Source: Escherichia coli (GTDB lineage Bacteria; Pseudomonadota; Gammaproteobacteria; Enterobacterales; Enterobacteriaceae). Taken from it: a stretch of DNA of 64,000 bases. Positions within the stretch are counted from its first letter, which is position 1. Every line of letters begins with the position of its first letter. Below, piece by piece: positions 5,065 to 43,855 of this stretch. The stretch is taken from the NCBI RefSeq assembly GCF_003334305.1, contig NZ_QOWS01000015.1. One strand, 5' to 3'. The position numbers and the translations under genes are program-made. The notes beneath the pieces were generated by a model that worked only from the letters and a program-made list of their open reading frames with translations, was not told where the DNA came from and ran no database searches.

Positions 5065-6316
5065 GTGCATCCCAAAGTAAGCGGCTGTCCAGCCATTCCA
5101 CAGCAAGAATAGTCAAAATTACCGCTGCGCCGAAATAAAACGCAGCCGGTCCCATAGTAAAAGCGAGGATCTGATCGCGATTAATCAGCGACATGGTTAA
5201 AGATATGACAAACAGGTCGAGCATCGACCAGCGACCAATCCAGGTCACCATCCGCAGTAACAGAATGCGTGTGCGTAAACCTTGCTGGCATTTAAAATGA
5301 ATGCTCAACAGTAAAGTGAACATGACGATCACTTTAGTAAACGGTACCAGAATACTGGCGATAAACACGATTCCCGCAACCGCAATGTTGCTACTTGCCA
5401 GCGACATAATTCCGGAAAGAATTGTATCTTCCTGCCGTCCTCCGTTCAGATAAATGATAGAAATAGGCAACAGGTTGGCAGGTAACAACAAAACGATTGA
5501 CGCTAACAGCGCCGCCCAGCATTTTTGCAAACTATGACGGCGACGCAGGCGTAGCGGGATATGGCAACGCGGGCAGCGACCACGCTGATCAGGATAGCCG
5601 GTAAAATGGCACCCAAGACAGACACGAAGTTTCTCGTCCCTACGCGTAGCGGGGCGCTGCGGATAAAATCGCTCCCACAGCTCCTCGACATTAAGATGTG
5701 ACAACGTCACCGTCGTTAAAATCACCAACGCCACAAAAGAGAACAAGCCGACACCCGCCTGGATATGGGCATAATCCTGTACCTTTATAGAAGCAACGCC
5801 AATGCCGACCAGGTAGATATCCAGCATTACCCACTCTTTAAGTCGCTCAAGCATCAGCAGTACCGGACGTAAATTCATTCCCAGTCGGTTACCAAACCAT
5901 AAATATGCTATGGAGGACACCAGAATGAGGGGGGCACCAATAACGCAGAAAAAGACCATCGCCCCCGTTATCGTATCGCCCTGTTTGGTCATTTGCCAGA
6001 TGCCTTGCATGACGTTGGCGTCGATACGAATACCTAACAGCCAGATATGCAACAGCGGTTCGCCCCAGGCAAACGGCATCAGCAACAGCATGGTGAAAGC
6101 CATTGCCGCCAGGCGCGTTAGCGACCAGTCGCGCCCGTCGCGAATTTTTGCCTGACAGCGCGGACAATAGGCACTCTGATGAGAATTTATCTCGGGCAGG
6201 CTAAACAGCATGTCACATTGCGGGCAACGTTGGTAATCACCACGCGGCAGTTCCTCGCCGATTGCCCTCACTGTTATCTTTTTTGTCGGCGTAATTTGTG
6301 GTGTGTTAAGAGCCAT
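5033..6316 (-). CDS. letA: Inner-membrane paraquat-inducible-A family protein (YebS)
   Basis: 427-aa ORF, Cys-pair motifs and hydrophobic segments; 32-bp overlap with letB. Confidence 0.9.
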
Positions 6317-6445
6317 GACGTGCCAAATGTAATAAGAATTAACATTAATATTAACCCATGATTGGAATGATCTTGAGCATTAACGCATTTAATGCTTATT
6401 TTAATAGGCTGGCAGTTCCAGGTAAGACAACCAAGTGATTATATA

Positions 6446-6943
6446 ATGAACAAAACAGAATTTTACGCGGATTTAAATCGCGACTTTAACGCGCTGATGG
6501 CGGGAGAAACCAGTTTTCTGGCAACGCTTGCGAACACCAGTGCGTTGTTATACGAGCGTCTCACTGACGTAAACTGGGCAGGTTTTTATTTGCTTGAGGA
6601 CGATACACTGGTACTAGGACCATTTCAGGGCAAAATTGCCTGTGTCCGGATACCCGTCGGGCGCGGGGTGTGCGGCACTGCGGTTGCCCGCAATCAAGTG
6701 CAGCGTATCGAGGATGTTCACGCGTTTGACGGGCATATTGCCTGTGATGCGGCGAGTAATTCTGAAATTGTTCTGCCGCTGGTGGTGAAAAATCAGATTA
6801 TTGGTGTTCTTGACATCGATAGTACCGTCTTCGGTCGCTTTACAGACGAGGACGAGCAAGGCTTACGTCAGCTTGTGGCACAGCTTGAAAAAGTGCTTGC
6901 AACGACGGATTACAAAAAATTCTTTGCGAGCGTCGCAGGATAA
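6446..6943 (+). CDS. msrC: Free methionine-(R)-sulfoxide reductase, GAF domain (YebR)
   Basis: ORF 6392..6943 trimmed to MNKTEFYADL start (165 aa); synteny. Confidence 0.8.
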   Translation: MNKTEFYADLNRDFNALMAGETSFLATLANTSALLYERLTDVNWAGFYLLEDDTLVLGPFQGKIACVRIPVGRGVCGTAVARNQVQRIEDVHAFDGHIACDAASNSEIVLPLVVKNQIIGVLDIDSTVFGRFTDEDEQGLRQLVAQLEKVLATTDYKKFFASVAG

Positions 6944-7039
6944 TCAACGGATAACGTAGCATTTACTGGTAGCGTCATTATAATGACGCCTGTTCATGCC
7001 TGCGCTTGTTGGCTACGTCCGTTGTAATCAGGAAATTTC

Positions 7040-7757: not shown

Positions 7758-9806
7758 ATGAACATGTTTTTTAGGCTTACCGCGTTAGCTGGCCTGCTTG
7801 CAATAGCAGGCCAGACCTTCGCTGTAGAAGATATCACGCGTGCTGATCAAATTCCGGTATTAAAGGAAGAGACGCAGCATGCGACGGTAAGTGAGCGCGT
7901 AACGTCGCGCTTCACCCGTTCTCATTATCGCCAGTTCGACCTCGATCAGGCATTTTCGGCCAAAATCTTTGACCGCTACCTGAATCTGCTCGATTACAGC
8001 CACAACGTGCTGCTGGCAAGCGATGTTGAACAGTTCGCGAAAAAGAAAACCGAGTTAGGCGATGAACTGCGTTCAGGCAAACTCGACGTTTTCTACGATC
8101 TCTACAATCTGGCGCAAAAGCGCCGTTTTGAGCGTTACCAGTACGCTTTGTCGGTACTGGAAAAGCCGATGGATTTCACCGGCAACGACACTTATAACCT
8201 TGACCGCAGCAAAGCGCCCTGGCCGAAAAACGAGGCTGAGTTGAACGCGCTGTGGGACAGTAAAGTCAAATTCGACGAGTTAAGCCTGAAGCTGGCAGGA
8301 AAAACGGATAAAGAAATTCGTGAAACCCTGACACGCCGCTACAAATTTGCCATTCGTCGTCTGGCGCAAACCAACAGCGAAGATGTTTTCTCGCTGGCAA
8401 TGACGGCGTTTGCGCGTGAAATCGACCCGCATACCAACTATCTTTCCCCGCGTAATACCGAACAGTTCAACACTGAAATGAGCTTGTCGCTGGAAGGTAT
8501 TGGCGCAGTGCTGCAAATGGATGATGACTACACCGTTATCAATTCGATGGTGGCAGGTGGTCCGGCAGCGAAGAGTAAAGCTATCAGCGTTGGTGACAAA
8601 ATTGTCGGTGTTGGTCAAACAGGCAAGCCGATGGTTGACGTGATTGGCTGGCGTCTTGATGATGTGGTTGCCTTAATTAAAGGGCCGAAGGGCAGTAAAG
8701 TTCGTCTGGAAATTTTACCTGCTGGTAAAGGGACCAAGACCCGCACTGTAACATTGACCCGTGAACGTATTCGTCTCGAAGACCGCGCGGTTAAAATGTC
8801 GGTGAAGACCGTCGGTAAAGAGAAAGTCGGCGTGCTGGATATTCCGGGCTTCTATGTGGGTTTGACAGACGATGTCAAAGTTCAACTGCAGAAACTGGAA
8901 AAACAGAATGTCAGCAGTGTGATCATCGACCTGCGTAGCAATGGCGGTGGGGCGCTGACCGAAGCGGTATCGCTCTCAGGTCTGTTTATTCCTGCGGGTC
9001 CCATTGTTCAGGTCCGCGATAACAACGGCAAGGTTCGTGAAGACAGCGATACCGACGGGCAGGTGTTCTATAAAGGCCCGCTGGTGGTACTGGTTGACCG
9101 TTTCAGTGCTTCGGCTTCAGAAATCTTTGCCGCGGCAATGCAGGATTACGGTCGTGCGCTGGTTGTGGGTGAACCGACGTTTGGTAAAGGCACCGTTCAG
9201 CAATACCGTTCATTGAACCGTATTTACGATCAGATGTTACGTCCTGAATGGCCAGCGCTGGGTTCTGTGCAGTACACGATCCAGAAATTCTATCGCGTTA
9301 ACGGCGGCAGTACGCAACGTAAAGGCGTAACGCCAGACATCATCATGCCGACGGGTAATGAAGAAACGGAAACGGGTGAGAAATTCGAAGATAACGCGCT
9401 GCCGTGGGATAGCATTGATGCCGCGACTTATGTGAAATCAGGCGATTTAACGGCCTTTGGGCCGGAGCTGCTGAAGGAACATAATGCGCGTATCGCGAAA
9501 GATCCTGAGTTCCAGAACATCATGAAGGATATCGCGCGCTTCAACGCTATGAAGGACAAGCGCAATATCGTTTCTCTGAACTACGCTGTGCGTGAGAAAG
9601 AGAATAATGAAGATGATGCGACGCGTCTGGCGCGTTTGAACGAACGCTTTAAACGCGAAGGTAAACCGGAGTTGAAGAAGCTGGATGATCTACCTAAAGA
9701 TTACCAGGAGCCGGATCCTTATCTGGATGAGACGGTGAATATCGCACTCGATCTGGCGAAGCTTGAAAAAGCCAGACCCGCGGAACAACCCGCTCCCGTC
9801 AAGTAA
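7758..9806 (+). CDS. prc: Tail-specific periplasmic protease
   Basis: ORF 7710..9806 trimmed to signal-peptide start MNMFFRLTALAGLLAIAGQTFA (682 aa). Confidence 0.9.
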   Translation: MNMFFRLTALAGLLAIAGQTFAVEDITRADQIPVLKEETQHATVSERVTSRFTRSHYRQFDLDQAFSAKIFDRYLNLLDYSHNVLLASDVEQFAKKKTELGDELRSGKLDVFYDLYNLAQKRRFERYQYALSVLEKPMDFTGNDTYNLDRSKAPWPKNEAELNALWDSKVKFDELSLKLAGKTDKEIRETLTRRYKFAIRRLAQTNSEDVFSLAMTAFAREIDPHTNYLSPRNTEQFNTEMSLSLEGIGAVLQMDDDYTVINSMVAGGPAAKSKAISVGDKIVGVGQTGKPMVDVIGWRLDDVVALIKGPKGSKVRLEILPAGKGTKTRTVTLTRERIRLEDRAVKMSVKTVGKEKVGVLDIPGFYVGLTDDVKVQLQKLEKQNVSSVIIDLRSNGGGALTEAVSLSGLFIPAGPIVQVRDNNGKVREDSDTDGQVFYKGPLVVLVDRFSASASEIFAAAMQDYGRALVVGEPTFGKGTVQQYRSLNRIYDQMLRPEWPALGSVQYTIQKFYRVNGGSTQRKGVTPDIIMPTGNEETETGEKFEDNALPWDSIDAATYVKSGDLTAFGPELLKEHNARIAKDPEFQNIMKDIARFNAMKDKRNIVSLNYAVREKENNEDDATRLARLNERFKREGKPELKKLDDLPKDYQEPDPYLDETVNIALDLAKLEKARPAEQPAPVK

Positions 9807-22546: not shown

Positions 22547-24145
22547 TTAACGTAACGGCATAATGGGCGTGATATGTCCATTATGCCGGGCGGGCGGCGG
22601 TTGGCTGCCCGCCAGCCATTTGGGAAAATCACGTAGCGGCATCGGCTGTGCGTACAAATACCCTTGCAAAATATGCACGCCATGACGGCGCAAATACTTC
22701 GCCTGTTCTTGCGTTTCCACGCCCTCCGCCACCAGTTCAATATTCAGTCTTTGCCCCAGCGCGATGATGATATCGGTCACCGTCGAGTTAACCGCGTCAG
22801 AACCTATAGCTGCGGTAAATGACTTATCAATTTTCAGCACGTCAGGACGTAATGTTTCAAGCCAGGAAAATGAACTGTTGCCGGTGCCGAAGTCATCAAT
22901 CGCCAGTTTGACGTTTTTACGATGTAGCTCGCGGGCAATCCGATAATCAACATCCAGTAAGGCATCGCGTTCGGTGATTTCGAGGATCAGTTGCTGAATC
23001 GGGTGAGCGCTAAACCAGTACTGATTGAGATCTTTTATCAGCACACCACGGCGAAAATGGCTGGGTGCGACGTTAATGCCAACATGAAACTGACTACTCA
23101 TCGGGAAAACATGGCGCTGACGAATGGTTTCTGCCATCACATAGCGGGTCAGTGGCACAATTAAATGATGTTCTTCCGCGATAGGAATAAACACATCCGG
23201 TGAAATCCAGCCCTGACGCGGATTATTCCAGCGCAGCAAAATCTCTACACCAATACATTGCTGGCTGCGCGCATTAAGCAAAGGCTGACAGAACAATTCG
23301 AACTCATGTTGCGCCAGGCCCAGATTGATTTCGCGGGAAAAGCTCATCCGGTAAGCGGTCGCCAGCCAGGCAATGTAGCCCACCAGTAAACTTAGCAGCA
23401 CCGCCAGCGGTAATTGTGTTGGAAGATAGTGCCATGCCAGCGCCGTAGCCCCCGGACCATTAACGTTAATGGTAAAAGGAAAGCGTTGCGAAGAAACCTG
23501 ATAGTTTTCATTGTCTTCAGGTTGCGGAAGGGAATCTACCAGCCCATTACCATAGAGCAAATGCCGTTTGTCCACCGTCAGGCTGGCGCTACTGATTTGC
23601 GGCAGTTGTGGCTCAAGGAGCATTGCCGTCAGTAAGTCGATGTTAATCATCTCCATGACCCCAGCATTGCTACTGCCCGCTGCAGGCGTCCATTGAATCA
23701 AAACCGGACTGCCTTTAATCAGGGCACGGTCGATCGTCAGGCGTAAAAGTGGTTGCGGTGCAGGAAGTTCAGCCAGAATGTCCACGACGGGCACATTGCG
23801 ATAACCAAAAATGCTGGAGCAATAGAGTGTGCCGTCTTGCACCAGGCCAATGGATCGCACAGTTTGGAGTTTTGCCGCCTGTTTACGTAATGGCAAATGG
23901 GCGACAGAGCAGGGCAGACCAATCAGCGGAAGCAAGACTTCGCTACCTGCCTGTAGGGGAAGCAGTACTTTATCTAATTCCTCTACAGCGTGATTGGCGA
24001 ATTGTACTACCCGTTGTTGATTTAAGTTACGCTGTGAAATAAATCGCACGCTCAGGGTCGAAGCGAGCGTAACGAGTGCGCAAATCGTACAAACAATCAT
24101 TCGATTACGGCGATAGGTTTTAATGATCCGTTGTGCTTTTTGCAT
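22547..24145 (-). CDS. pdeD: c-di-GMP phosphodiesterase (CSS-EAL), YoaD
   Basis: ORF 22547..24175 trimmed to MQKAQRIIKT start (532 aa); C-terminal EAL-domain signatures. Confidence 0.85.
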   Translation of the reverse strand: MQKAQRIIKTYRRNRMIVCTICALVTLASTLSVRFISQRNLNQQRVVQFANHAVEELDKVLLPLQAGSEVLLPLIGLPCSVAHLPLRKQAAKLQTVRSIGLVQDGTLYCSSIFGYRNVPVVDILAELPAPQPLLRLTIDRALIKGSPVLIQWTPAAGSSNAGVMEMINIDLLTAMLLEPQLPQISSASLTVDKRHLLYGNGLVDSLPQPEDNENYQVSSQRFPFTINVNGPGATALAWHYLPTQLPLAVLLSLLVGYIAWLATAYRMSFSREINLGLAQHEFELFCQPLLNARSQQCIGVEILLRWNNPRQGWISPDVFIPIAEEHHLIVPLTRYVMAETIRQRHVFPMSSQFHVGINVAPSHFRRGVLIKDLNQYWFSAHPIQQLILEITERDALLDVDYRIARELHRKNVKLAIDDFGTGNSSFSWLETLRPDVLKIDKSFTAAIGSDAVNSTVTDIIIALGQRLNIELVAEGVETQEQAKYLRRHGVHILQGYLYAQPMPLRDFPKWLAGSQPPPARHNGHITPIMPLR

Positions 24146-24275
24146 GCGGGCCACCCTGTAAGCGTATGGCGACAAACGCCTGACGCAACAGTGGAAGTGT
24201 AGTGGGGAATATTACAGCAGACGAGAAAGCGGGTATAAATTCGCCCATCCGTTGCAGATGGGCGAGTAAGAAGTA

Positions 24276-25640
24276 TTAGTCACACTGGACTTTGATTGCC
24301 AGACCACCGCGTGAGGTTTCGCGGTATTTGGCGTTCATGTCCTTACCGGTTTCGTACATCGTTTCGATGACCTTATCCAGCGAGACGCGCGGTGCACTGG
24401 TGCGGCGCAGAGCCATCCGTGCGGCGTTAATCGCCTTCACAGAGGCAATGGCATTACGCTCAATGCACGGCACCTGAACCTGCCCTGCAACCGGGTCGCA
24501 GGTTAAACCAAGGTTGTGTTCCATGCCAATTTCCGCCGCCACGCAAACCTGTTCCGGGCTACCGCCCAGCAGTTCTGCAAGACCCGCAGCAGCCATTGAA
24601 CAGGCAACACCCACTTCGCCCTGGCAACCAACTTCCGCACCGGAAATAGAGGCGTTCATTTTATACAATGCACCAATCGCGCCCGCTGCCATAAAGTAAC
24701 GGGTATAGATGTCCGGGCTGACCGATTCAATAAAGTGGTCATAGTAAGCCAGCACTGCCGGAACGATACCGCAGGCACCGTTGGTTGGCGCAGTTACCAC
24801 ACGACCACCGGCGGCGTTTTCTTCGTTAACTGCCAGCGCAAACATGTTTACCCAGTCAATGACATTCATCGGATCGTTAGACAGTTTATCGCTGGAAACT
24901 AACATCCGGCGCAGGGCAGACGCACGACGTGGCACGCGCAGCGGGCCTGGCAGTACACCTTCGGTGTTCATCCCGCGATCGATACATGCCTGCATGGTTT
25001 GCCAGACATGCGCGAAATACTCGTCGATCTCTTTCTTGCTGTGCAGCGCCAGTTCGTTCTGCATAGCGAGACCAGACAGCGAATAGCCGGTTTCATTACA
25101 GTACGCGAGCAGTTCGGTGGCAGATTTGAACGGATACGGCACGCTCACTTCGTTGGCAGCATCCTGACCAAAGTGTTCTTCATCGACGATAAAACCGCCG
25201 CCGATGGAATAATAAGTTTTGCTGTAGACGACTTCATCGCCGTTATAGGCGTGGATTTGCATACCGTTTTCATGCAGCGGCAGGTTGCCGTTATGAAAAC
25301 GCATCCCGTTGTCGCGCGGGAAATCCACTTCATGCCGTCCCTGTGCCAGCAGCAGACGTTCGCGCTCTTCTACGTCGCGAATAAAACCGGGAATACTGTC
25401 GATATCCACGGTGGCAGGTTCGTTACCTGCAAGACCCATAATAATGGCGATATCGGTGTGGTGGCCTTTACCCGTCAGCGACAGTGAACCATAAACGTCC
25501 ACGGCAACGCGAGTAACGCTATCCAGTAAGCCTTTTTCGACCAGATCATCGACGAACTGTTTACCCGCCTTCATAGGCCCTACGGTATGGGAAGATGAGG
25601 GACCAATCCCCACCTTAAACATGTCGAATAGACTAATCAC
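24276..25640 (-). CDS. sdaA: L-serine dehydratase 1
   Basis: 454-aa ORF; synteny. Confidence 0.95.
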
Positions 25641-25823
25641 GATAATACTCCTGACAAGGTGACTGGACTTCCAGTAACGAACTAATAACAGCGCATAGTG
25701 TAAGAGGGAACGCGGCGACTGGCTTAACTATTCACATGAATTAAACTAATCAAAAACCGCGATTTAACTAATATTGCGATGATTGTCTCAAGTAGTGTTT
25801 TGTAGATGTAAAGATAAGTATAG

Positions 25824-32826: not shown

Positions 32827-34512
32827 TTGAAGAAGGTTTGGCTTAACCGTTATCCCGCGGACGTTCCGACGGAGATCAACCCTGACCGTTATCAATCTCT
32901 GGTAGATATGTTTGAGCAGTCGGTCGCGCGCTACGCCGATCAACCTGCGTTTGTGAATATGGGGGAGGTAATGACCTTCCGCAAGCTGGAAGAACGCAGT
33001 CGCGCGTTTGCCGCTTATTTGCAACAAGGGTTGGGGCTGAAGAAAGGCGATCGCGTTGCGTTGATGATGCCTAATTTATTGCAATATCCGGTGGCGCTGT
33101 TTGGCATTTTGCGTGCCGGGATGATCGTCGTAAACGTTAACCCGTTGTATACCCCGCGTGAGCTTGAGCATCAGCTTAACGATAGCGGCGCATCGGCGAT
33201 TGTTATCGTGTCTAACTTTGCTCACACACTGGAAAAAGTGGTTGATAAAACCGCCGTTCAGCACGTAATTCTGACCCGTATGGGCGATCAGCTATCTACG
33301 GCAAAAGGCACGGTAGTCAATTTCGTTGTTAAATACATCAAGCGTTTGGTGCCGAAATACCATCTGCCAGATGCCATTTCATTTCGTAGCGCACTGCATA
33401 ACGGCTACCGGATGCAGTACGTCAAACCCGAACTGGTGCCGGAAGATTTAGCTTTTCTGCAATACACCGGCGGCACCACTGGTGTGGCGAAAGGCGCGAT
33501 GCTGACTCACCGCAATATGCTGGCGAACCTGGAACAGGTTAACGCGACCTATGGTCCGCTGTTGCATCCGGGCAAAGAGCTGGTGGTGACGGCGCTGCCG
33601 CTGTATCACATTTTTGCCCTGACCATTAACTGCCTGCTGTTTATCGAACTGGGTGGGCAGAACCTGCTTATCACTAACCCGCGCGATATTCCAGGGTTGG
33701 TAAAAGAGTTAGCGAAATATCCGTTTACCGCTATCACGGGCGTTAACACCTTGTTCAATGCGTTGCTGAACAATAAAGAGTTCCAGCAGCTGGATTTCTC
33801 CAGTCTGCATCTTTCCGCAGGCGGAGGGATGCCAGTGCAGCAAGTGGTGGCAGAGCGTTGGGTGAAACTGACAGGACAGTATCTGCTGGAAGGCTATGGC
33901 CTTACCGAGTGTGCGCCGCTGGTCAGCGTTAACCCATATGATATTGATTATCATAGTGGTAGCATCGGTTTGCCGGTGCCGTCGACGGAAGCCAAACTGG
34001 TGGATGATGATGATAATGAAGTACCACCGGGTCAACCGGGTGAGCTTTGTGTCAAAGGACCGCAGGTGATGCTGGGTTACTGGCAGCGTCCGGATGCTAC
34101 AGATGAGATCATCAAAAATGGCTGGTTACACACCGGCGACATCGCGGTGATGGATGAAGAAGGGTTCCTGCGCATTGTCGATCGTAAAAAAGACATGATT
34201 CTGGTTTCCGGTTTTAACGTCTATCCCAACGAGATTGAAGATGTCGTCATGCAGCATCCTGGCGTACAGGAAGTCGCGGCTGTTGGCGTACCTTCCGGCT
34301 CCAGTGGTGAAGCGGTGAAAATCTTCGTAGTGAAAAAAGATCCATCGCTTACCGAAGAGTCACTGGTGACCTTTTGCCGCCGTCAGCTCACGGGTTACAA
34401 AGTACCGAAGCTGGTGGAGTTTCGTGATGAGTTACCGAAATCTAACGTCGGAAAAATTTTGCGACGAGAATTACGTGACGAAGCGCGCGGCAAAGTGGAC
34501 AATAAAGCCTGA
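32827..34512 (+). CDS. fadD: Long-chain fatty acid CoA ligase
   Basis: ORF 32761..34512 trimmed to TTG start [14 protein letters not shown] (561 aa); AMP-binding motif [11 protein letters not shown]. Confidence 0.9.
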
Positions 34513-34530
34513 GTGTTAAGTCAGTCGTCA

Positions 34531-34557
34531 GACGCCGGTTAATCCGGCGTTTTTTTT
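34531..34557 (+). terminator. fadD intrinsic terminator
   Basis: CGCCGG-TTAAT-CCGGCG stem followed by 8 T. Confidence 0.75.
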
Positions 34558-35709: not shown

Positions 35710-35762
35710 AATCTTCCGAAGCCGGACTGGGCGCGCTCAGCGCCACATCCGGCTTTGGCAAA

Positions 35763-36728
35763 CTACAAATCCAACACCAGGCGTTTACCCTTCGCACGCG
35801 AACAACAGATCAACATACTTTGCTGGCTGGCACGCTCTTCATCGCTAAAATACTGATCCCGATGGTCAGCTTCACCTTCCAGTATTGCTGTTTCGCAGGT
35901 TCCGCATACCCCTTCACGACATAAACATTCCACTTTCGCGGCTTTATTATTTTCAATAACCTGCAAAATAGTCATCTCTTCCGGCACCACAAACTCTTTT
36001 CCGGAACGGGCAAGCACCAGGGTAAAGGCATCGCCGGTTTTGTCTTCGATAGCAAATTGCTCAAAGTGCAGCGTATCGGCGACGATGTCCAGACGCGCAG
36101 CTTCACTTCTTACCGCTTCATTTAGCGCCTCGGGACCACAGGTATAAACGTGTGTGCCAGGTTCGATATCCGCCAATAATCGCGCTAATTCCAGTCGTGT
36201 TCCGGTTGATGAGTGATGCAAGTGAACTTTCTCAGCCTGCGGATGCTGGACTAGCTCATCACGAAATGCGCAACTTTCTGGATTTCGCGAGCAGTAATGT
36301 AGCTGCCAGTCGACGTCGCTGTGTTGCAGCTCTGCCATGTGCGACAGGAAAGGGGTGATACCAATACCGCCCGCGATAAACAGATGCTTTCTGGCTGAGG
36401 GAATTAGCGCAAACAGGTTATTAGGCGTTGAAATCGTTAACCGATCGCCCACTTTTACCTGCTGATGCAAAAAGCGGGAACCGCCGCGCGAGTTTTCCTC
36501 CAGCCGAACGGCAATCTGATAACAAGAGGTGTCATGCGGCGAACTCAGTAGTGAATACGCATTGCTGTACTGGTTATCACCATCGCTCATCTGCACAATG
36601 ATGTGACTTCCTCCGGTGAACGCAGGCAGCGGTTTGCCATCGGTTGCCACCAGCGTGAAGCGTTTCACCTGTTCGGTAAGCGGTTCCACCTGACTCACCT
36701 GTACTTCAAACATTTGATAGTCTGACAT
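35763..36728 (-). CDS. yeaX: Carnitine monooxygenase reductase subunit (YeaX)
   Basis: 321-aa ORF with flavin/NAD-binding domain and C-terminal 2Fe-2S ferredoxin cysteines. Confidence 0.9.
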   Translation of the reverse strand: MSDYQMFEVQVSQVEPLTEQVKRFTLVATDGKPLPAFTGGSHIIVQMSDGDNQYSNAYSLLSSPHDTSCYQIAVRLEENSRGGSRFLHQQVKVGDRLTISTPNNLFALIPSARKHLFIAGGIGITPFLSHMAELQHSDVDWQLHYCSRNPESCAFRDELVQHPQAEKVHLHHSSTGTRLELARLLADIEPGTHVYTCGPEALNEAVRSEAARLDIVADTLHFEQFAIEDKTGDAFTLVLARSGKEFVVPEEMTILQVIENNKAAKVECLCREGVCGTCETAILEGEADHRDQYFSDEERASQQSMLICCSRAKGKRLVLDL

Positions 36729-36783
36729 TGCTGTACTCCATCAAAAATCAGCCCAGCGGCGGAAAATACCGCCGCCGATGTCA

Positions 36784-37908
36784 TTAGTCCTTAAACACCT
36801 GCGCCAGCAGATTATGGAAATGGGCGATACCATGTTCGGAAATGCCACTACCGCTACTGTCGGCCATGATGCGCCCCTGACCACGATAGCCACGCGATTT
36901 CAGCCCTTTCTGTACGCTTTCAACCAGACGTAAATCTTCCGGACGGAACACATCGCGATACCACTCAATCAGCGATTTTTGCTCGTCGGTTAACTCTTCA
37001 TTGGTGAAGTAAATATCGTAGTTTTGCAGGGTAGTTTCAGAATCCACCGGGAATTCATAAATGACCGTCATCATCCCTTTGATCGGGGTGACGTTCAGCA
37101 TCGTGCACGGCCACAGCCAGAAACCGTGGAATGCCGCATCCGTACCCTCTTCAAATTTAAACGACTGTTCGGACGGTTTGGCGAAACCGTATTGCAGCGT
37201 CCAGTTACCGTGCATGGTGTGCCAGTAACGATCAACCTGTACGGAGTCGGAGAAACCTGGATGCGCCGGACCACAGTGATAGCACTCGAGATAGTTATCG
37301 ACAATGTTCTTCCAGTTGGCAGGCGTGCGGGTGGTAAAGCGGGCCGCCAGTTTCAGATCGTGGACTTCCGGGCAGGCTTCCAGCACTTTCGCGCCCAGAC
37401 CGGGTAACTGATCTTCTACGCTGGTGGCGTTGGGGTCCATGTTGATGAAGACGAATCCGGCATATTCTTCCAGACGCACCGGAACCAGTTGCGCTTTGTC
37501 GCTATCGAAATTGGCGACGTTTTCGCAGTTACGTGCATGGGCCAGATTGCCATCGAGTTTGAATGCCCATGCGTGATACGGGCAGGTAATCACATTTTTT
37601 GCTTTTCCTTCACCGCTCAACAACTGATGACCACGGTGCGGACACACGTTATAGAACGCGCGCAAAACCTTATCACGACCGCGTACCAGCACGATGCTTT
37701 CGCCAATGATCTCACGCGTCACATAATCATTGGCATTCGCCAGTTCGCTGCTGTGAGCGACGCAAATCCAGCTTTTGGCGAAGACGTTCTCTTTTTCGTG
37801 TTCAAATGCGTTCTGATCGGTATAAAAACGGGCAGGAATGGTCCACGCCTCTTGCGGGTTAGCGCAAAAATTTTCGGGTAGTACAAAGTCAGGGCTCAGA
37901 TTGCTCAT
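36784..37908 (-). CDS. yeaW: Carnitine monooxygenase Rieske oxygenase subunit (YeaW)
   Basis: ORF 36784..38028 trimmed to MSNLSPDFVL start (374 aa); Rieske motif CPHRG...CPYH. Confidence 0.9.
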   Translation of the reverse strand: MSNLSPDFVLPENFCANPQEAWTIPARFYTDQNAFEHEKENVFAKSWICVAHSSELANANDYVTREIIGESIVLVRGRDKVLRAFYNVCPHRGHQLLSGEGKAKNVITCPYHAWAFKLDGNLAHARNCENVANFDSDKAQLVPVRLEEYAGFVFINMDPNATSVEDQLPGLGAKVLEACPEVHDLKLAARFTTRTPANWKNIVDNYLECYHCGPAHPGFSDSVQVDRYWHTMHGNWTLQYGFAKPSEQSFKFEEGTDAAFHGFWLWPCTMLNVTPIKGMMTVIYEFPVDSETTLQNYDIYFTNEELTDEQKSLIEWYRDVFRPEDLRLVESVQKGLKSRGYRGQGRIMADSSGSGISEHGIAHFHNLLAQVFKD

Positions 37909-37939
37909 AGGGATACCTTTATCGTTAGGATGATGGCGC

Positions 37940-39550
37940 TCAGTTGTCGCCTTTGAATACGGTTCCCGCAGGGAGCACTGGTGTTTTTTCCAGGGCTTCA
38001 ACCGGTGTCTGCGGGAGATAATGTTCAACTTGATGAGCCGGAATGTCGGCGTAATCCTGTTTCAGCCAGCGAATAAATCCGCCGACTTTCACCAGTAAAA
38101 TGACGAGGAAGGGAAGGGCTGTGAGCACGACGGTGGTTTTCATCGTTTCCAGCGAAGCACCGGTAAACAAGATGGAAAGCGGGATCAGAGTGATCACCAC
38201 GCACCAGAAAAGACGCAGCCCACGGTCAGGATCGTCACCTTCCTGGAGATTACGCGTACTGGTCGCAGCCATGGTGTAGGCCACCGCATCCATATGCGAG
38301 GCAAGGAAAATAATCATCACGCCCAGGTATGCGGCGAGGAACAATTTACCGGCTGGCAACGACATCAGAACTTGCTGTACAGCTGTTTCGCCGCCCAGTG
38401 TTTCCAGCACCTGTGGGACGTTGATTACGCCATTGATAAACTGATGAATGGCATAGCTTTCCATTACGCCGAAGAAGAACCAGCAACCGACGGTGCTGCC
38501 GAGGATCAGTCCCCAGATAACTTCTTTAATCTTACGACCGCGGGAAACGCGGGTGACAAACATTGCTACGCCAGGGGTGTATGAGATCCACCACAGCCAG
38601 TAGAAAACGGTCCAGTTGCGGGTAAATGAACCATCGCCAAGCGGATCGGTGAATAAGCTCATTTGCAGGAAGTTTTGCGTGGTCAGACCGATGGCATTGA
38701 TGATGCTGTTGGTAATAAATTCGGTTGGGCCGACAATCAGCACCAGTAATGGCAGCAGGAACGCGCCCCAGCCAACCATTTTGCTCAGACGTTGCAAACC
38801 GTTGTTGATACCAATCCACGAGCTTAGGCAAAAAATGCCGCCGGAAAGCAGGATCACAAATGCCTGCACGGTGAAGTTATCGGGTAAACCGGTCAGCGCG
38901 GAAAGTCCACGAGTAAAGGTTGCTGCGGTGACAACAAGGGAAATAGTCAGTGCGCCGACAGTGGCGATCAGGAACATCAAATCAACCAGTTTTCCCCATG
39001 GGCCTTGCGGGCGAACGCCGGTAATCGCGGCAATAATGCCGGAAAGACTCAGACCTTTGTTTTTACGCACATGAAAGTGATAAGCCATGATTAATGAGGC
39101 CAGCGTATAAGTTGCCCAGGCGCTGATGCCCCAGTGGAAGAAGGAGTAAGGGACGCTAAATTCGAGTGCCTGTTGTGAACGCGGTGCGATATTTAATCCA
39201 GGCGTTTGATAATAATAGGCCCATTCAGCAACCCCCCAATAAAGCGTAGAAGAACCTAAACCGGCACAAATAAACATAAACAGCCAGGAGAGTGTGCTGT
39301 ATTCCGGTTTTCCTTCGCCAAGACGAATATTGCCGTATTTACTGGTGGCTAAATAAATCACCAGTCCCATTGCCAGCAAAACCAATACCTGTACGGCGGA
39401 ACCTAACGTACGCGTAACAAAAGTGTATATTGCGTTGGCCGCGTCGGCCGATTGTTGTGGGAAAAGGCTTAATGCAGCTGCGATGAAAAGAATGGCCACC
39501 AGGCTGATGCTTATCAGCGGCACATCTTTTTTCTTAACATTGCTCATCAT
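37940..39550 (-). CDS. yeaV: BCCT-family transporter YeaV (probable carnitine/betaine-type substrate)
   Basis: 536-aa polytopic ORF with CaiT/BetT-like N-terminus; exact start uncertain. Confidence 0.8.
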
Positions 39551-39753
39551 GAGTCATCTCCTGGGCATAAAAGCCCGTCTCTGGCTTTTGCCAGTTGTAA
39601 TTATTTGCAGGGTAATGAGTTGTATGTTGTGTTTAACAAATTGATTATTTGCATGTTACATAAATTAAACAATTAAGAATACGGAAAGCCATAAAACACG
39701 AAACGGAAACAATAAAAGGTGAAATGACGCAGGTTATTTACTGCAAAGAACGA

Positions 39754-39781
39754 ATAAAAAAACCGCGTCAGTGACGCGGTT
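39754..39781 (-). terminator. dmlA intrinsic terminator
   Basis: AACCGCGTCA-G-TGACGCGGTT palindrome; on the minus strand it is followed by a T-run. Confidence 0.65.
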
Positions 39782-39800
39782 CAAATAAACTGGTTTGACC

Positions 39801-40886
39801 TTAACGCAAAATAATTTTGCAAATCGCGTCGGCAACCTGTGGCGTGGTGGCATTGCCTTTCATATCAGGTGTTTTCGGCCCGTGAGCAATCACTTCTTCA
39901 ATTGCTGCCAGAATACCGTTATGCGCTTGCTGGAAACGCTCATCGCCATTGCCGAGAAAATCGAGCATCATTGCACCGGCCCAAATCGTGGCGATAGGGT
40001 TAGCAATGTTTTTCCCGTAGATATCCGGCGCGGAACCGTGGACTGGCTCGAAGAGCGACGGGAAAGTGCGTTCCGGATTCAGGTTGGCGGATGGGGCAAT
40101 GCCAATGGTGCCGGTGCAGGCCGGGCCAAGATCGGAAAGGATATCGCCAAATAAATTGGACGCCACCACCACATCGAAGCGTTCCGGCTGCATCACAAAA
40201 CGCGCGCAGAGAATATCAATATGCTGCTTGTCCCAGCGGATCTCCGGGTAATTCTCGGCCATTGCTTCCACTCGCTCATCCCAGTACGGCATGCTGATGG
40301 CTAAACCGTTTGATTTAGTGGCAGAAGTTAGCGTCTTACGTGGGCGGCTTTGCGCAAGTTCGAAGGCATAACGCAAAATGCGATCGACACCACGACGCGT
40401 AAATACCGATTCCTGAATGACGACTTCATGCTCTGTACCTTCATTCACTCTACCGCCGAGCGAGGAATATTCGCCTTCGGTGTTTTCCCTGACCACGTAA
40501 AAATCGATGTCGCCAGGCTGTTTTCCCGCCAGCGGGCAGGGAACGCCAGGAAAGAGACGAACCGGGCGCAGGTTGACGTACTGGTCGAATTCACGACGAA
40601 ATTTCAGCAGCGAACCCCACAACGAAATATGGTCAGGAACGGTGTCCGGCCAGCCGACGGCACCAAAATAGATGGCGTCGAAACGGCTAAGTTGCTCATG
40701 CCAGTCGTCCGGCATCATTTTACCGTGATGGCTGTAATACTCGCAGCTCGCCCACTCCATTTGCTCAAAACTCAAGGCGAAGCCCCAGCGCTCAGCGGCA
40801 GCCTGTAACACGCGAATCCCTTCAGGAAGGACTTCTTTGCCAATCCCGTCTCCCGGGATCGCAGCAATACGCATCGTTTTCATCAT
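39801..40886 (-). CDS. dmlA: D-malate dehydrogenase (decarboxylating), YeaU
   Basis: 361-aa ORF, isocitrate/isopropylmalate dehydrogenase family. Confidence 0.9.
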   Translation of the reverse strand: MMKTMRIAAIPGDGIGKEVLPEGIRVLQAAAERWGFALSFEQMEWASCEYYSHHGKMMPDDWHEQLSRFDAIYFGAVGWPDTVPDHISLWGSLLKFRREFDQYVNLRPVRLFPGVPCPLAGKQPGDIDFYVVRENTEGEYSSLGGRVNEGTEHEVVIQESVFTRRGVDRILRYAFELAQSRPRKTLTSATKSNGLAISMPYWDERVEAMAENYPEIRWDKQHIDILCARFVMQPERFDVVVASNLFGDILSDLGPACTGTIGIAPSANLNPERTFPSLFEPVHGSAPDIYGKNIANPIATIWAGAMMLDFLGNGDERFQQAHNGILAAIEEVIAHGPKTPDMKGNATTPQVADAICKIILR

Positions 40887-40988
40887 TGGGTTCTCACTTC
40901 CTGACCATCAAAATTGACAACATCACCATCCTATAATTGACTGAAAAGGAATTAATCCCCGTAACTGGTGAAACATAAAACACGAATC

Positions 40989-41912
40989 ATGAATAATTTA
41001 CCGCTGCTGAATGATTTGCGCGTCTTTATGCTGGTGGCTCGTCGGGCTGGTTTTGCCGCCGTGGCGGAAGAACTGGGCGTTTCACCGGCGTTCGTCAGCA
41101 AGCGCATCGCCTTGCTGGAGCAAACGCTAAACGTGGTGTTGTTACACCGCACCACCCGCCGCGTCACCATTACCGAAGAAGGAGAGCGGATTTATGAATG
41201 GGCGCAGCGGATTTTGCAGGATGTCGGTCAGATGATGGACGAACTTTCTGACGTGCGTCAGGTGCCGCAGGGGATGCTGCGTATTATCAGCAGCTTTGGT
41301 TTTGGACGACAGGTGGTGGCTCCGGCGTTATCAGCGCTGGCTAAGGCGTATCCGCAACTGGAATTACGTTTTGATGTGGAAGACCGGTTGGTCGATTTGG
41401 TCAATGAAGGTGTTGATCTCGATATTCGCATTGGCGATGACATCGCCCCTAATTTAATCGCCCGCAAACTGGCGACTAATTACCGCATTCTCTGCGCGTC
41501 GCCGGAATTTATTGCGCAACATGGCGCGCCGAAACATTTAACCGATCTTTCCGCATTGCCGTGCCTGGTCATTAAAGAGCGCGATCATCCTTTTGGTGTC
41601 TGGCAATTACGCAATAAAGAAGGCCACCATGCGATTAAAGTCACCGGCCCACTGTCGTCTAATCATGGAGAAATTGTCCATCAGTGGTGTCTCGATGGGC
41701 AGGGGATTGCTCTGCGCTCCTGGTGGGATGTTAGCGAAAACATTGCCAGTGGTCATTTAGTGCAAGTGCTACCGGAATATTACCAGCCAGCGAACGTCTG
41801 GGCCGTTTATGTTTCAAGGCTGGCGACGTCAGCGAAAGTGCGGATAACGGTAGAATTTTTACGCCAGTATTTTGCCGAGCACTACCCGAATTTTTCACTG
41901 GAGCATGCCTGA
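40989..41912 (+). CDS. dmlR: LysR-family regulator of dmlA (YeaT)
   Basis: ORF 40968..41912 trimmed to MNNLPLLNDLRVF start (307 aa); divergent from dmlA. Confidence 0.85.
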   Translation: MNNLPLLNDLRVFMLVARRAGFAAVAEELGVSPAFVSKRIALLEQTLNVVLLHRTTRRVTITEEGERIYEWAQRILQDVGQMMDELSDVRQVPQGMLRIISSFGFGRQVVAPALSALAKAYPQLELRFDVEDRLVDLVNEGVDLDIRIGDDIAPNLIARKLATNYRILCASPEFIAQHGAPKHLTDLSALPCLVIKERDHPFGVWQLRNKEGHHAIKVTGPLSSNHGEIVHQWCLDGQGIALRSWWDVSENIASGHLVQVLPEYYQPANVWAVYVSRLATSAKVRITVEFLRQYFAEHYPNFSLEHA

Positions 41913-42849: not shown

Positions 42850-43209
42850 ATGCTGCAAATCCCACAGAATTATATTCATACGCGCTCAACGCCTTTCTGG
42901 AATAAACAAACTGCGCCTGCCGGAATATTCGAACGTCATCTTGATAAAGGAACGCGCCCGGGGGTTTACCCACGCCTTTCCGTTATGCATGGGGCGGTCA
43001 AATATCTCGGCTACGCTGATGAACACAGTGCAGAGCCTGATCAGGTGATCCTTATCGAAGCGGGGCAGTTTGCGGTGTTCCCTCCAGAAAAGTGGCACAA
43101 CATTGAAGCCATGACTGACGATACTTATTTCAACATTGACTTCTTCGTGGCTCCTGAAGTCCTGATGGAAGGTGCGCAACAACGGAAAGTCATTCATAAC
43201 GGGAAATGA
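42850..43209 (+). CDS. yeaR: DUF1971 protein YeaR (nitrosative-stress inducible)
   Basis: 119-aa ORF; synteny. Confidence 0.9.
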   Translation: MLQIPQNYIHTRSTPFWNKQTAPAGIFERHLDKGTRPGVYPRLSVMHGAVKYLGYADEHSAEPDQVILIEAGQFAVFPPEKWHNIEAMTDDTYFNIDFFVAPEVLMEGAQQRKVIHNGK

Positions 43210-43212
43210 ATC

Positions 43213-43401
43213 ATGGGCAAAGCAACGTATACCGTGACCGTCACCAATAACAGCAATGGCGTTTCTGTCGATTATGAAACAGAGACGCCGATGACTTTGC
43301 TGGTGCCAGAAGTGGCGGCTGAAGTGATAAAAGATTTGGTGAATACCGTGCGTTCTTATCCGGTGCGCCGTAAAACCCCGTCCTTCAGGGCGGGGATATA
43401 A
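43213..43401 (+). CDS. yoaG: Small protein YoaG; 3' end appears to run into the IS left end
   Basis: 62-aa ORF starting 4 bp after yeaR; last ~15 codons overlap the predicted IS left-end hairpin. Confidence 0.75.
   Translation: MGKATYTVTVTNNSNGVSVDYETETPMTLLVPEVAAEVIKDLVNTVRSYPVRRKTPSFRAGI
43374..43397 (+). repeat. Predicted IS left-end subterminal imperfect hairpin
   Basis: CCCCGTCCTTCAGGGCGGGG; core 18-mer CGTCCTTCAGGGCGGGGA matches the right-end copy 16/18 in direct orientation. Confidence 0.45.
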
Positions 43402-43416
43402 GGCGCGGTTTTCCAC

Positions 43417-43848
43417 CTAACCAGGTGTTTGCTGTTGTTCAATGTATTGGCGGATGACGGATATTGGCGCACCTCCGCAGCTACTGGCAAAATAGCCAGG
43501 ACTCCACAAAACGCCTTTGTAGTAATACCTGACTGCAATATCTGGTCGATCTCGTCGCAGTAACCTACCCGATACGCCTTTGAGGCTGTTTACCAGACTG
43601 GATATCGCCAGTTTGGGAGGATAGTTAATTAACAAATGGACGTGATCTGGTTCGCCATCCATTTCAACAAGTTCAGCTTCAAAATCAGCACATACATTTG
43701 AAAAGTAAGTGCGTAGTTTTTCTGTCGCGTCATGGTCAAAAATCTGGAGTCGGTATCTGGTGACAAAGACCAGGTGAACATGCATCAGGAAAACACAATG
43801 CCTTCCACGCCGGATATCGGTTTCTTTTTTCACAGACCAAAGTATCAT
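43417..43848 (-). CDS. tnpA: IS200/IS605-family Y1 HUH transposase TnpA
   Basis: 143-aa ORF with HUH motif (PDHVHLLI) and catalytic-Tyr helix (GGAPISVIRQYIEQQ). Confidence 0.85.
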   Translation of the reverse strand: MILWSVKKETDIRRGRHCVFLMHVHLVFVTRYRLQIFDHDATEKLRTYFSNVCADFEAELVEMDGEPDHVHLLINYPPKLAISSLVNSLKGVSGRLLRRDRPDIAVRYYYKGVLWSPGYFASSCGGAPISVIRQYIEQQQTPG

Positions 43849-43855
43849 TTGACCT

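Follow-up and report, generated by a model that had tools for sequence, protein, structure and literature searches.

A probably complete, ancestral-form carnitine monooxygenase locus, yeaV-yeaW-yeaX, in an Escherichia coli genome

The stretch of Escherichia coli DNA analysed here (64 kb, below called the window) carries on its minus strand three uninterrupted open reading frames for a carnitine monooxygenase and a transporter: yeaX (35763-36728), yeaW (36784-37908) and yeaV (37940-39550). There are no internal stops, and the spacers are short, with 31 bp from the yeaV stop to the yeaW start and 55 bp from the yeaW stop to the yeaX start. The original prediction of an intact carnitine oxygenase cluster had given these positions, the common strand and gaps of 31-55 bp, all of which match the list of open reading frames. 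Several complete RefSeq E. coli chromosomes contain the 4.4-kb region with 100% identity. In their annotation the genes are named BCCT family transporter YeaV, carnitine monooxygenase oxygenase subunit YeaW and reductase subunit YeaX, and are flanked by rnd on one side and dmlA on the other; in E. coli strain A7 the 100% identity covers window positions 15500-59900. The yeaXWV genes are a real, conserved cluster and not a chance pattern. They are also an already known E. coli gene set, annotated in RefSeq and described in the literature, and what is added here is modest: allele frequencies, a conserved promoter architecture, a shared 13-bp box and a conserved hairpin in front of yeaX. Plus-strand open reading frames inside the three genes were dismissed as artefacts of reading conserved genes on the opposite strand, and no Rfam family was found within or adjoining the cluster. 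It is highly probable that the window contains the E. coli carnitine monooxygenase locus in its complete, ancestral form, as the downstream half of the unit dmlR <-> dmlA / yeaV-yeaW-yeaX.

The product of yeaW (cntA; minus strand) is the Rieske-type oxygenase subunit, a protein of 374 residues with the Pfam domains Rieske (E = 1.6e-23) and Ring_hydroxyl_A. It matches CntA of Acinetobacter baumannii, for which a crystal structure is available (PDB 6Y8J), with 73% identity (E = 9e-197). Neither YeaW (best GbcA, 154 against 670 bits) nor YeaX (best PRK10684, 122 against 383 bits) passed the cutoff of any NCBIfam family, and the naming therefore rests on the match to the CntA structure and on the RefSeq records. 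The list of open reading frames gives the middle frame as 36784-38028, with 414 residues counted from an upstream TTG; this frame was rejected, as it overlaps yeaV. The start was placed at the ATG at 37908, because RefSeq annotates the 374-residue form, an AAAGG ribosome-binding site precedes it and CntA aligns from residue 4 as counted from this ATG.

The Rieske motifs quoted in the original prediction are present in YeaW as C89-P-H91-R-G and C109-P-Y-H112, and the [2Fe-2S] ligands C89/H91/C109/H112 correspond to C86/H88/C106/H109 of CntA. The 2-His-1-carboxylate triad of the mononuclear iron, H211/H216/D325, corresponds to CntA H208/H213/D323, so that the loss of a Rieske or mononuclear-iron ligand, named beforehand as the observation that would speak against a functional oxygenase, was not encountered in the alignment: every ligand is intact. 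The bridging glutamate is E208 in the motif NYLECYH (E205 in CntA), and a Glu in this place, instead of an Asp, is the signature of the "group V" Rieske oxygenases (PMC7948474, PMC5433236). The pocket residues Y206, Y228, N272, Y297, F260, Y317 and F321 are identical to CntA Y203, Y225, N270, Y295, F258, Y315 and F319, as is the Cys pair beside the iron site (C209, C212). In the proposed alignment to the characterised CntA, 19 of the 19 catalytic and pocket residues checked were kept. The surface residues mutagenised in YeaW (PMC9508527) are also present; the roles of the pocket residues and ligands were described for CntA (PMC7948474) and those of the ligands for YeaW (PMC9508527). Accession WP_000067822.1 is common to the window-identical DNA, K-12 and BL21(DE3), and the window YeaW is the same protein as the K-12 YeaW from which the characterised enzyme was derived. 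The gene for the cognate reductase follows directly downstream, and an open reading frame for a small (beta) subunit is lacking in the cluster.

That reductase gene, yeaX (cntB; minus strand), encodes a chain of 321 residues with three Pfam domains, FAD_binding_6 (9-103), NAD_binding_1 (117-207) and a C-terminal plant-type Fer2 (240-313), and its residues 9-321 align with residues 11-321 of phthalate dioxygenase reductase (2PIA; E = 6e-56). The description of YeaX as a flavin/2Fe-2S reductase agrees with these domains and the full-length alignment, and the protein is taken as the reductase of carnitine monooxygenase, dependent on reduced nicotinamide adenine dinucleotide (NADH) and carrying flavin mononucleotide (FMN) and a [2Fe-2S] cluster. 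The cluster cysteines C270/C275/C278/C308 are all present, and so are the docking residues R271/K313/D320 (roles in PMC9508527). Compared with K-12 YeaX, 318 of 321 residues are identical; the differences (I43V, N203I and V215A relative to K-12) lie at positions to which no function has been assigned, and none affects a cluster ligand or a mutagenised docking residue.

The transporter gene yeaV (minus strand) is full-length, with 536 codons. Its product aligns over residues 1-536 of 536 with the equivalog NF007412 (1033 bits, cutoff 647), and Pfam BCCT spans residues 14-499, so the assignment to the BCCT family stood. The first hydrophobic helix (residues 12-30) is the most hydrophobic of the protein. 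At residue 313 YeaV has the Trp-rich signature (Trp-box) that marks the quaternary-amine binding helix of the BCCT family. The 56% identity to the characterised A. baumannii carnitine transporter Aci01347 (PMC11353897) and the genomic context suggest that YeaV is probably a carnitine importer.

The three genes hold as the prediction had delimited them, but the functional unit reaches further than was proposed, to dmlA and dmlR. The gene dmlA (39801-40886, minus strand; RefSeq annotation of identical DNA) encodes a decarboxylating D-malate dehydrogenase and is the ortholog of mdh in the carnitine operon of A. baumannii, whereas dmlR (40989-41912, plus strand; RefSeq annotation) is divergent from it and encodes a LysR-type regulator, the ortholog of CarR. 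Identities of 72% (DmlA and A. baumannii MDH) and 45% (DmlR and CarR) have been reported, together with the orthology of all five genes to the A. baumannii cluster and the absence from E. coli of hyd, the gene for an acylcarnitine hydrolase, and of msadh, that for malic semialdehyde dehydrogenase (PMC11353897). We compared the clusters in one scan of species-representative genomes, taking the best 80 loci, in which DmlA was 69-72% identical to the Acinetobacter proteins. The collinear order dmlR (divergent), dmlA, yeaV, (hyd), yeaW, (msadh), yeaX was found in 55 of the 80 loci: 22 have both extra genes and are of the Acinetobacter type, 19 contain only msadh (Citrobacter, Xenorhabdus, Pseudomonas) and 14 contain neither, among them all four Escherichia loci and some of Citrobacter, Yersinia, Serratia and Xenorhabdus. 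Over all 80 loci msadh is present in 60 and hyd occurs almost exclusively in those of the Acinetobacter type, while the divergent position of dmlR is conserved in most. The unit is made up of the five genes dmlR / dmlA-yeaV-yeaW-yeaX, a reduced form of the carnitine catabolic cluster that has neither msadh nor hyd.

In the window there is no room for either gene, msadh in the 55 bp between yeaW and yeaX or hyd in the 31 bp between yeaV and yeaW, and no aldehyde dehydrogenase is annotated in positions 15500-59900. In Citrobacter sp. R56 the extra gene between yeaW and yeaX encodes an aldehyde dehydrogenase of the SSADH family with 488 residues. Citrobacter portucalensis lacks msadh, and its yeaW-yeaX spacer (8105-8225, compared with Citrobacter sp. 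R56) keeps the last bases of the msadh frame (GGCTGTAAC...). This scar marks a loss of msadh that, to judge from the spacer, is separate from the event in Escherichia.

The region between dmlA and yeaV contains, in the direction of transcription, a terminator, the block TTTTATTGTTTCCGTTTCGTGTTTTATG, TTGTTT, a 17-nt spacer, AATAAT, a leader of about 85 nt, AGGAG and the ATG. The terminator (39760-39782, minus strand; a 10-bp stem followed by T7) was identified by terminator scan and folding and is invariant across Escherichia and Citrobacter; it is a canonical intrinsic terminator, that of dmlA, and sets dmlA apart from yeaV transcription. A yeaV promoter is predicted at 39644-39672 (minus strand), with TTGTTT at 39672-39667 as the -35 box and AATAAT at 39649-39644 as the -10 box. 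It was derived from a relaxed hexamer scan, which covered the yeaV upstream region and the dmlR-dmlA spacer, and from conservation between species. The hexamers score 8/12, and both are located in blocks conserved from Escherichia to Citrobacter, with a variable spacer. In the alignment of Escherichia, Citrobacter and isolate RIT691, the terminator, the 13-bp box described below, the two hexamers and the Shine-Dalgarno sequence stand out as conserved from the variable sequence between them, which is the pattern to be expected of functional elements, as read from the alignment. A promoter this weak suits activator dependence and probably needs an activator.

The yeaV leader itself (39551-39640, minus strand) contains two small hairpins directly before the Shine-Dalgarno sequence, GGC-N4-GCC and GGGC-N6-GCCC, with conserved stems and variable loops in Escherichia and Citrobacter. 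Its fold has z = -3.2 and it has no Rfam match; the whole leader is absent in K-12 and BL21.

A 13-bp box, TTCGTGTTTTATG, is a candidate regulator site upstream of yeaV (39690-39702, minus strand), and an exact second copy occurs in the divergent control region of dmlR and dmlA (40974-40986, minus strand), 2 nt from the dmlR start codon. The exact 13-mer is found only at these two places in the window, both in control regions of the carnitine module. About 59 nt separate the centre of each copy from the predicted start of transcription downstream, that of yeaV in one case and in the other that of dmlA, the promoter of which is likewise predicted and weak (relaxed scan). The core GTGTTTTAT is conserved at the yeaV site in Escherichia, Citrobacter and isolate RIT691, and at both sites in Citrobacter. 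When two mismatches are allowed the count is not significant (2 found, 2.07 expected window-wide), and the argument for a shared box therefore rests on the exactness of both matches, their locations and their conservation. We predict that the box would be a shared operator, most simply for DmlR. In the literature searched, neither a DmlR binding site nor a yeaV transcription start was found.

The common strand, the spacers of 31 and 55 bp and the single conserved promoter candidate suggest that yeaV-yeaW-yeaX would be co-transcribed from the weak promoter at 39644-39672. The transcript probably ends, as does that of rnd, in a strong hairpin that lies where the convergent genes rnd and yeaX meet (35710-35764; RNA fold -30.9 kcal/mol, z = -4.7 against shuffled sequences), which would serve as a bidirectional terminator. 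A second hairpin is located within the proposed operon, just upstream of the yeaX ribosome-binding site. This GC-rich 10-bp hairpin is followed by a T-run (36753-36778, minus strand; terminator-like site scan), and the 58-nt yeaW-yeaX spacer folds with -26.2 kcal/mol (z = -4.5). The hairpin is kept in Escherichia and Citrobacter regardless of which gene, yeaW or msadh, comes before it, with compensatory changes at 4 of the 10 predicted pairs; aligning the spacer upstream of yeaX with those of Yersinia, Serratia and Xenorhabdus gave no consensus structure, so that the informative set is Escherichia and Citrobacter. Such a stable, terminator-like site with covarying pairs could mean that the genes do not form one operon, most transcripts being stopped before yeaX and the reductase being expressed separately or at a much lower level. 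We hold this to be improbable, as the T-run is set apart from the stem and interrupted (GGGCTGATTTTT), which makes it a weak terminator, and no promoter-like site is present in the mere 24 nt between hairpin and yeaX. Furthermore, the oxygenase depends on its reductase to function (PMC9508527), and the order yeaW-(msadh)-yeaX is kept in nearly all of the 80 loci. Within a single yeaVWX transcript the hairpin may lower expression of the reductase relative to the oxygenase, as an attenuator, or stabilise the message.

The state of the locus varies widely within the species. A match to the three genes is found in 4,378 of 5,426 complete E. coli genomes, and in 4,368 of these a single place covers at least 80% of the stretch; of 4379 matching records, 2205 reach 99% identity or more and the others, with one exception, 95-99%. 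A segment of 225 bp (39422-39646, minus strand) is absent from K-12 and BL21(DE3), as found by alignment to K-12 HMS174 and BLAST to BL21(DE3), the boundaries being the same in both. It is made up of yeaV codons 1-43 and the 96 bases upstream of yeaV, and takes in the ribosome-binding site together with the 5' leader and one half of the predicted -10 box. The deletion starts inside the -10 hexamer, which reads AATTTT in K-12 compared with AATAAT in the window, and in K-12-type genomes the match ends 128 nt before the yeaV start. The segment is present in 2,931 of the 5,426 genomes (54%); by subtraction, about 1,447 (27%) have the deletion. In a further 1,044 (19%), which include a strain of sequence type 95 (ST95), one common junction removes yeaX, yeaW and yeaV together with most of dmlA and dmlR, of which fragments are left. 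The original prediction had considered the integrity of the cluster to be of interest for strain phenotype, a point borne out by the damaged or deleted version in about 46% of the complete genomes.

The region of the lost codons 1-43 corresponds to the beginning of the BCCT domain and aligns with homologs of solved structure, and E. albertii and Citrobacter likewise have a full-length yeaV; therefore, the yeaV form of the window is ancestral and that of K-12 a truncation. In the PGAP annotation of K-12 and BL21(DE3) yeaV is labelled a pseudogene "missing N-terminus", and thus the truncation is not hidden, but no discussion of it was found in the literature searched. Two side observations concern the same gene. 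A direct repeat, ATTATTTGCAgGgTA / ATTATTTGCAtGtTA, is present at 39600-39614 and 39644-39658 (in the yeaV sense TGCAAATAAT twice, 44 nt apart); the predicted -10 box falls within its upstream copy, as does the right edge of the deletion in K-12, and its downstream copy is not conserved in Citrobacter. In Escherichia whittamii Sa2BVA5 (5448-6966) the match of the yeaV ortholog falls into two pieces that overlap, one covering residues 1-190 and the other 214-536. A frameshift or a small rearrangement seems to have broken this ortholog, and that would count as one more independent hit on the gene for the transporter.

Damage on this scale raises the question whether the locus is a cryptic, decaying remnant, with frames that happen to be intact here, no physiological role and piecemeal loss, first of msadh and then of the yeaV 5' end or the whole module. 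The absence of msadh from all four Escherichia loci, although it is found in 60 of 80 species, would fit such a course, as would the msadh 3'-end scar in C. portucalensis, the 225-bp deletion in about 27% of E. coli genomes with a further 19% lacking the module, and the split yeaV of E. whittamii. Laboratory strains without growth on carnitine and without activity (PMC11353897) point the same way, and an accidental deletion from yeaJ to yeaV cost no fitness in M9 glucose (PMC9769844). However, the yeaV 5' segment is kept in 54% of the genomes, the three-gene stretch shows the high identities given above, and strains that are phylogenetically distant have an identical YeaW protein. Conservation of the non-coding control blocks in front of yeaV between Escherichia and Citrobacter speaks for ongoing selection, and the recurrence of the form without msadh in Yersinia, Serratia, Xenorhabdus and Citrobacter suggests a stable alternative rather than decay. 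We therefore regard a mere remnant as rather unlikely.

If the complete locus is functional, a route from carnitine to central metabolism can be proposed. L-carnitine would be imported by YeaV, a BCCT secondary transporter, and NADH would pass two electrons to the FMN of YeaX and on to its plant-type [2Fe-2S] cluster. From there electrons would reach the Rieske cluster of the trimeric YeaW and cross the subunit interface via Glu208 to the iron held by His211, His216 and Asp325. O2 would be activated at this iron and C4 of carnitine hydroxylated, and the product would collapse to trimethylamine (TMA) and malic semialdehyde. An unlinked aldehyde dehydrogenase such as GabD would have to convert malic semialdehyde to D-malate, there being no cluster-encoded malic semialdehyde dehydrogenase (MSA-DH) in E. 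coli, and DmlA would yield pyruvate and CO2. By the priority rules, C4 cleavage of (R)-carnitine and oxidation of the aldehyde give (R)-malate, that is D-malate, which fits as the substrate of DmlA. The route from carnitine to D-malate has been demonstrated in A. baumannii, and GabD and MSA-DH share 62% identity (PMC11353897). In E. coli the locus is a reduced form of the complete carnitine-to-pyruvate pathway, and the malic semialdehyde step must come from elsewhere. For the E. coli enzymes, FMN and a plant-type [2Fe-2S] cluster were found in YeaX and a Rieske cluster with mononuclear iron in YeaW; in vitro, YeaW and YeaX cloned from K-12 DH10B consumed carnitine with NADH and O2 and formed TMA (PMC9508527). 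A carnitine-to-TMA flux in E. coli in vivo is inferred.

Another role than the use of carnitine as a carbon source seems distinctly unlikely to us, be it the trimming of quaternary-amine osmolyte pools within the cell or a promiscuous action mainly on gamma-butyrobetaine from the anaerobic cai pathway. It was proposed that clusters without msadh and/or mdh mainly adjust intracellular carnitine levels (PMC11353897), and msadh is indeed absent at the E. coli locus. Yet the CntA residues that bind the hydroxyl and carboxylate of carnitine (the equivalents of Y225, N270 and Y295) are all conserved in YeaW, and dmlA and dmlR stay linked to the oxygenase genes and are co-lost with them, through one junction in 1044 genomes. 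D-malate can be derived from carnitine only, not from butyrobetaine.

Several points weigh against a functional carnitine pathway at the locus. O2, on which the enzyme depends, is scarce in the lumen of the gut. With msadh and hyd absent from the cluster the pathway is incomplete at the locus, and the damage or loss in 46% of the genomes suggests weak selection. At standard scan thresholds no strong sigma-70 promoter is found upstream of yeaV, and the conserved terminator-like hairpin between yeaW and yeaX could limit co-transcription. A metabolomics screen suggested a broad substrate range for YeaV (PMC10971958). BL21, B and K12 did not grow on carnitine, an extract of BL21 had no detectable activity, and public data contained no condition with substantial transcription (PMC11353897). 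A review table that lists BL21, DH10B and K12 as carnitine-positive (PMC6200775) was not taken as evidence of phenotype, the source for K12 (PMC5433236) having used K12 DNA only as a standard in quantitative PCR. Weak support for expression comes from O157:H7 Sakai, in which yeaV and yeaW were up about 2-fold at growth transitions (PMC2241611); other O157:H7 genomes have the full allele.

The negative results in vivo, on which authors based their doubt about a role of the E. coli cluster in carnitine use, all come from strains reported as BL21, B and K12. The K-12 and BL21(DE3) genomes carry the 225-bp deletion, and because of this strains with the intact allele appear to have been outside the published in vivo tests. 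The shared deletion removes the first transmembrane helix of YeaV, the start codon, the ribosome-binding site and the leader. As a tentative and somewhat doubtful possibility, strains with the intact allele (54%, the strain of the window among them) may express yeaVWX under DmlR via the shared 13-bp box and make TMA from carnitine aerobically, unlike the laboratory strains. Carnitine can also enter E. coli by CaiT, ProP and ProU. When overexpressed, the truncated K-12 yeaV still led to some carnitine depletion (PMC10971958), which is suggestive of carnitine as a substrate and is weak contrary evidence to a difference in phenotype between the intact and truncated forms.

Trimethylamine derived from carnitine has been linked to cardiovascular risk. 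Of the cntA/yeaW sequences of the human gut, 98.1% are closest to E. coli (PMC5433236). Counts of yeaW/cntA genes overestimate the number of functional loci, the undamaged form being present in only about half of the complete E. coli genomes. The standard laboratory strains used for phenotype tests are without this form, which may be a simple, testable reason for the mismatch between genes and TMA phenotype; if strains with the intact allele do make TMA, gene-based estimates of the TMA potential of the gut would need allele resolution.

Some further observations concern other parts of the window. Compared with BL21(DE3), it has an insertion of 1,748 bp (43360-45107) between a yoaG-like DUF1869 gene and yeaQ; in the identical strain A7 this insertion contains an IS200/IS605 tnpA (43417-43848, minus strand) and a gene for a TnpB/InsQ RNA-guided endonuclease (43856-45064, plus strand). 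It alters the 3' end of the DUF1869 gene, which has 189 nt in the window and 183 nt in BL21. In BL21(DE3), yeaR is split by an IS4-like IS421 element (23966-25674 of the BL21(DE3) locus), whereas the yeaR of the window (42850-43209) is intact. Two full-length Rfam matches were found on the plus strand, the small RNA SroD (34471-34556, 114.6 bits; end of fadD and fadD-rnd spacer) and a cspA-type thermoregulator 5' untranslated region (14961-15421, 135.7 bits) just upstream of the rlmA/mntP region and presumably at the cspC locus.

Among the closest known systems, the YeaW/YeaX pair of K-12 DH10B and KO11FL (PMC9508527) is like that of the window in the YeaW accession, in 318 of 321 YeaX residues, in gene order and in spacers. 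The K-12 and BL21 loci differ in the loss of 225 bp, which makes yeaV a 5'-truncated pseudogene, whereas the window has the full yeaV of 536 codons, the leader and the predicted -10 box. The A. baumannii cluster carR / mdh-bcct-hyd-cntA-msadh-cntB (PMC7948474, PMC11353897) has the five common genes in the same order and orientation, with identities of 45, 72, 56, 73 and about 51-52% for regulator, MDH, BCCT transporter, oxygenase and reductase, respectively. It contains hyd and msadh, and the E. coli locus neither; the latter, unlike the former, has a strong intrinsic terminator and a separate predicted promoter between dmlA and yeaV, and of the two species only A. baumannii has been shown to grow on carnitine. 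The Citrobacter type, dmlR / dmlA-yeaV-yeaW-msadh-yeaX (Citrobacter sp. R56), encodes proteins 78-94% identical to those of the window and shares with it the dmlA terminator, the region of the 13-bp box, the -35 and -10 blocks and the hairpin before yeaX. Citrobacter sp. R56 has msadh between yeaW and yeaX, whereas Escherichia keeps only the spacer that follows msadh. Finally, the class IA phthalate dioxygenase and its reductase (2PIA) have a similar two-component layout, with a single-chain reductase and an oxygenase of alpha subunits only, without a beta subunit, but phthalate dioxygenase acts on an aromatic ring and has a bridging Asp, whereas YeaW acts on a quaternary amine and has a bridging Glu.

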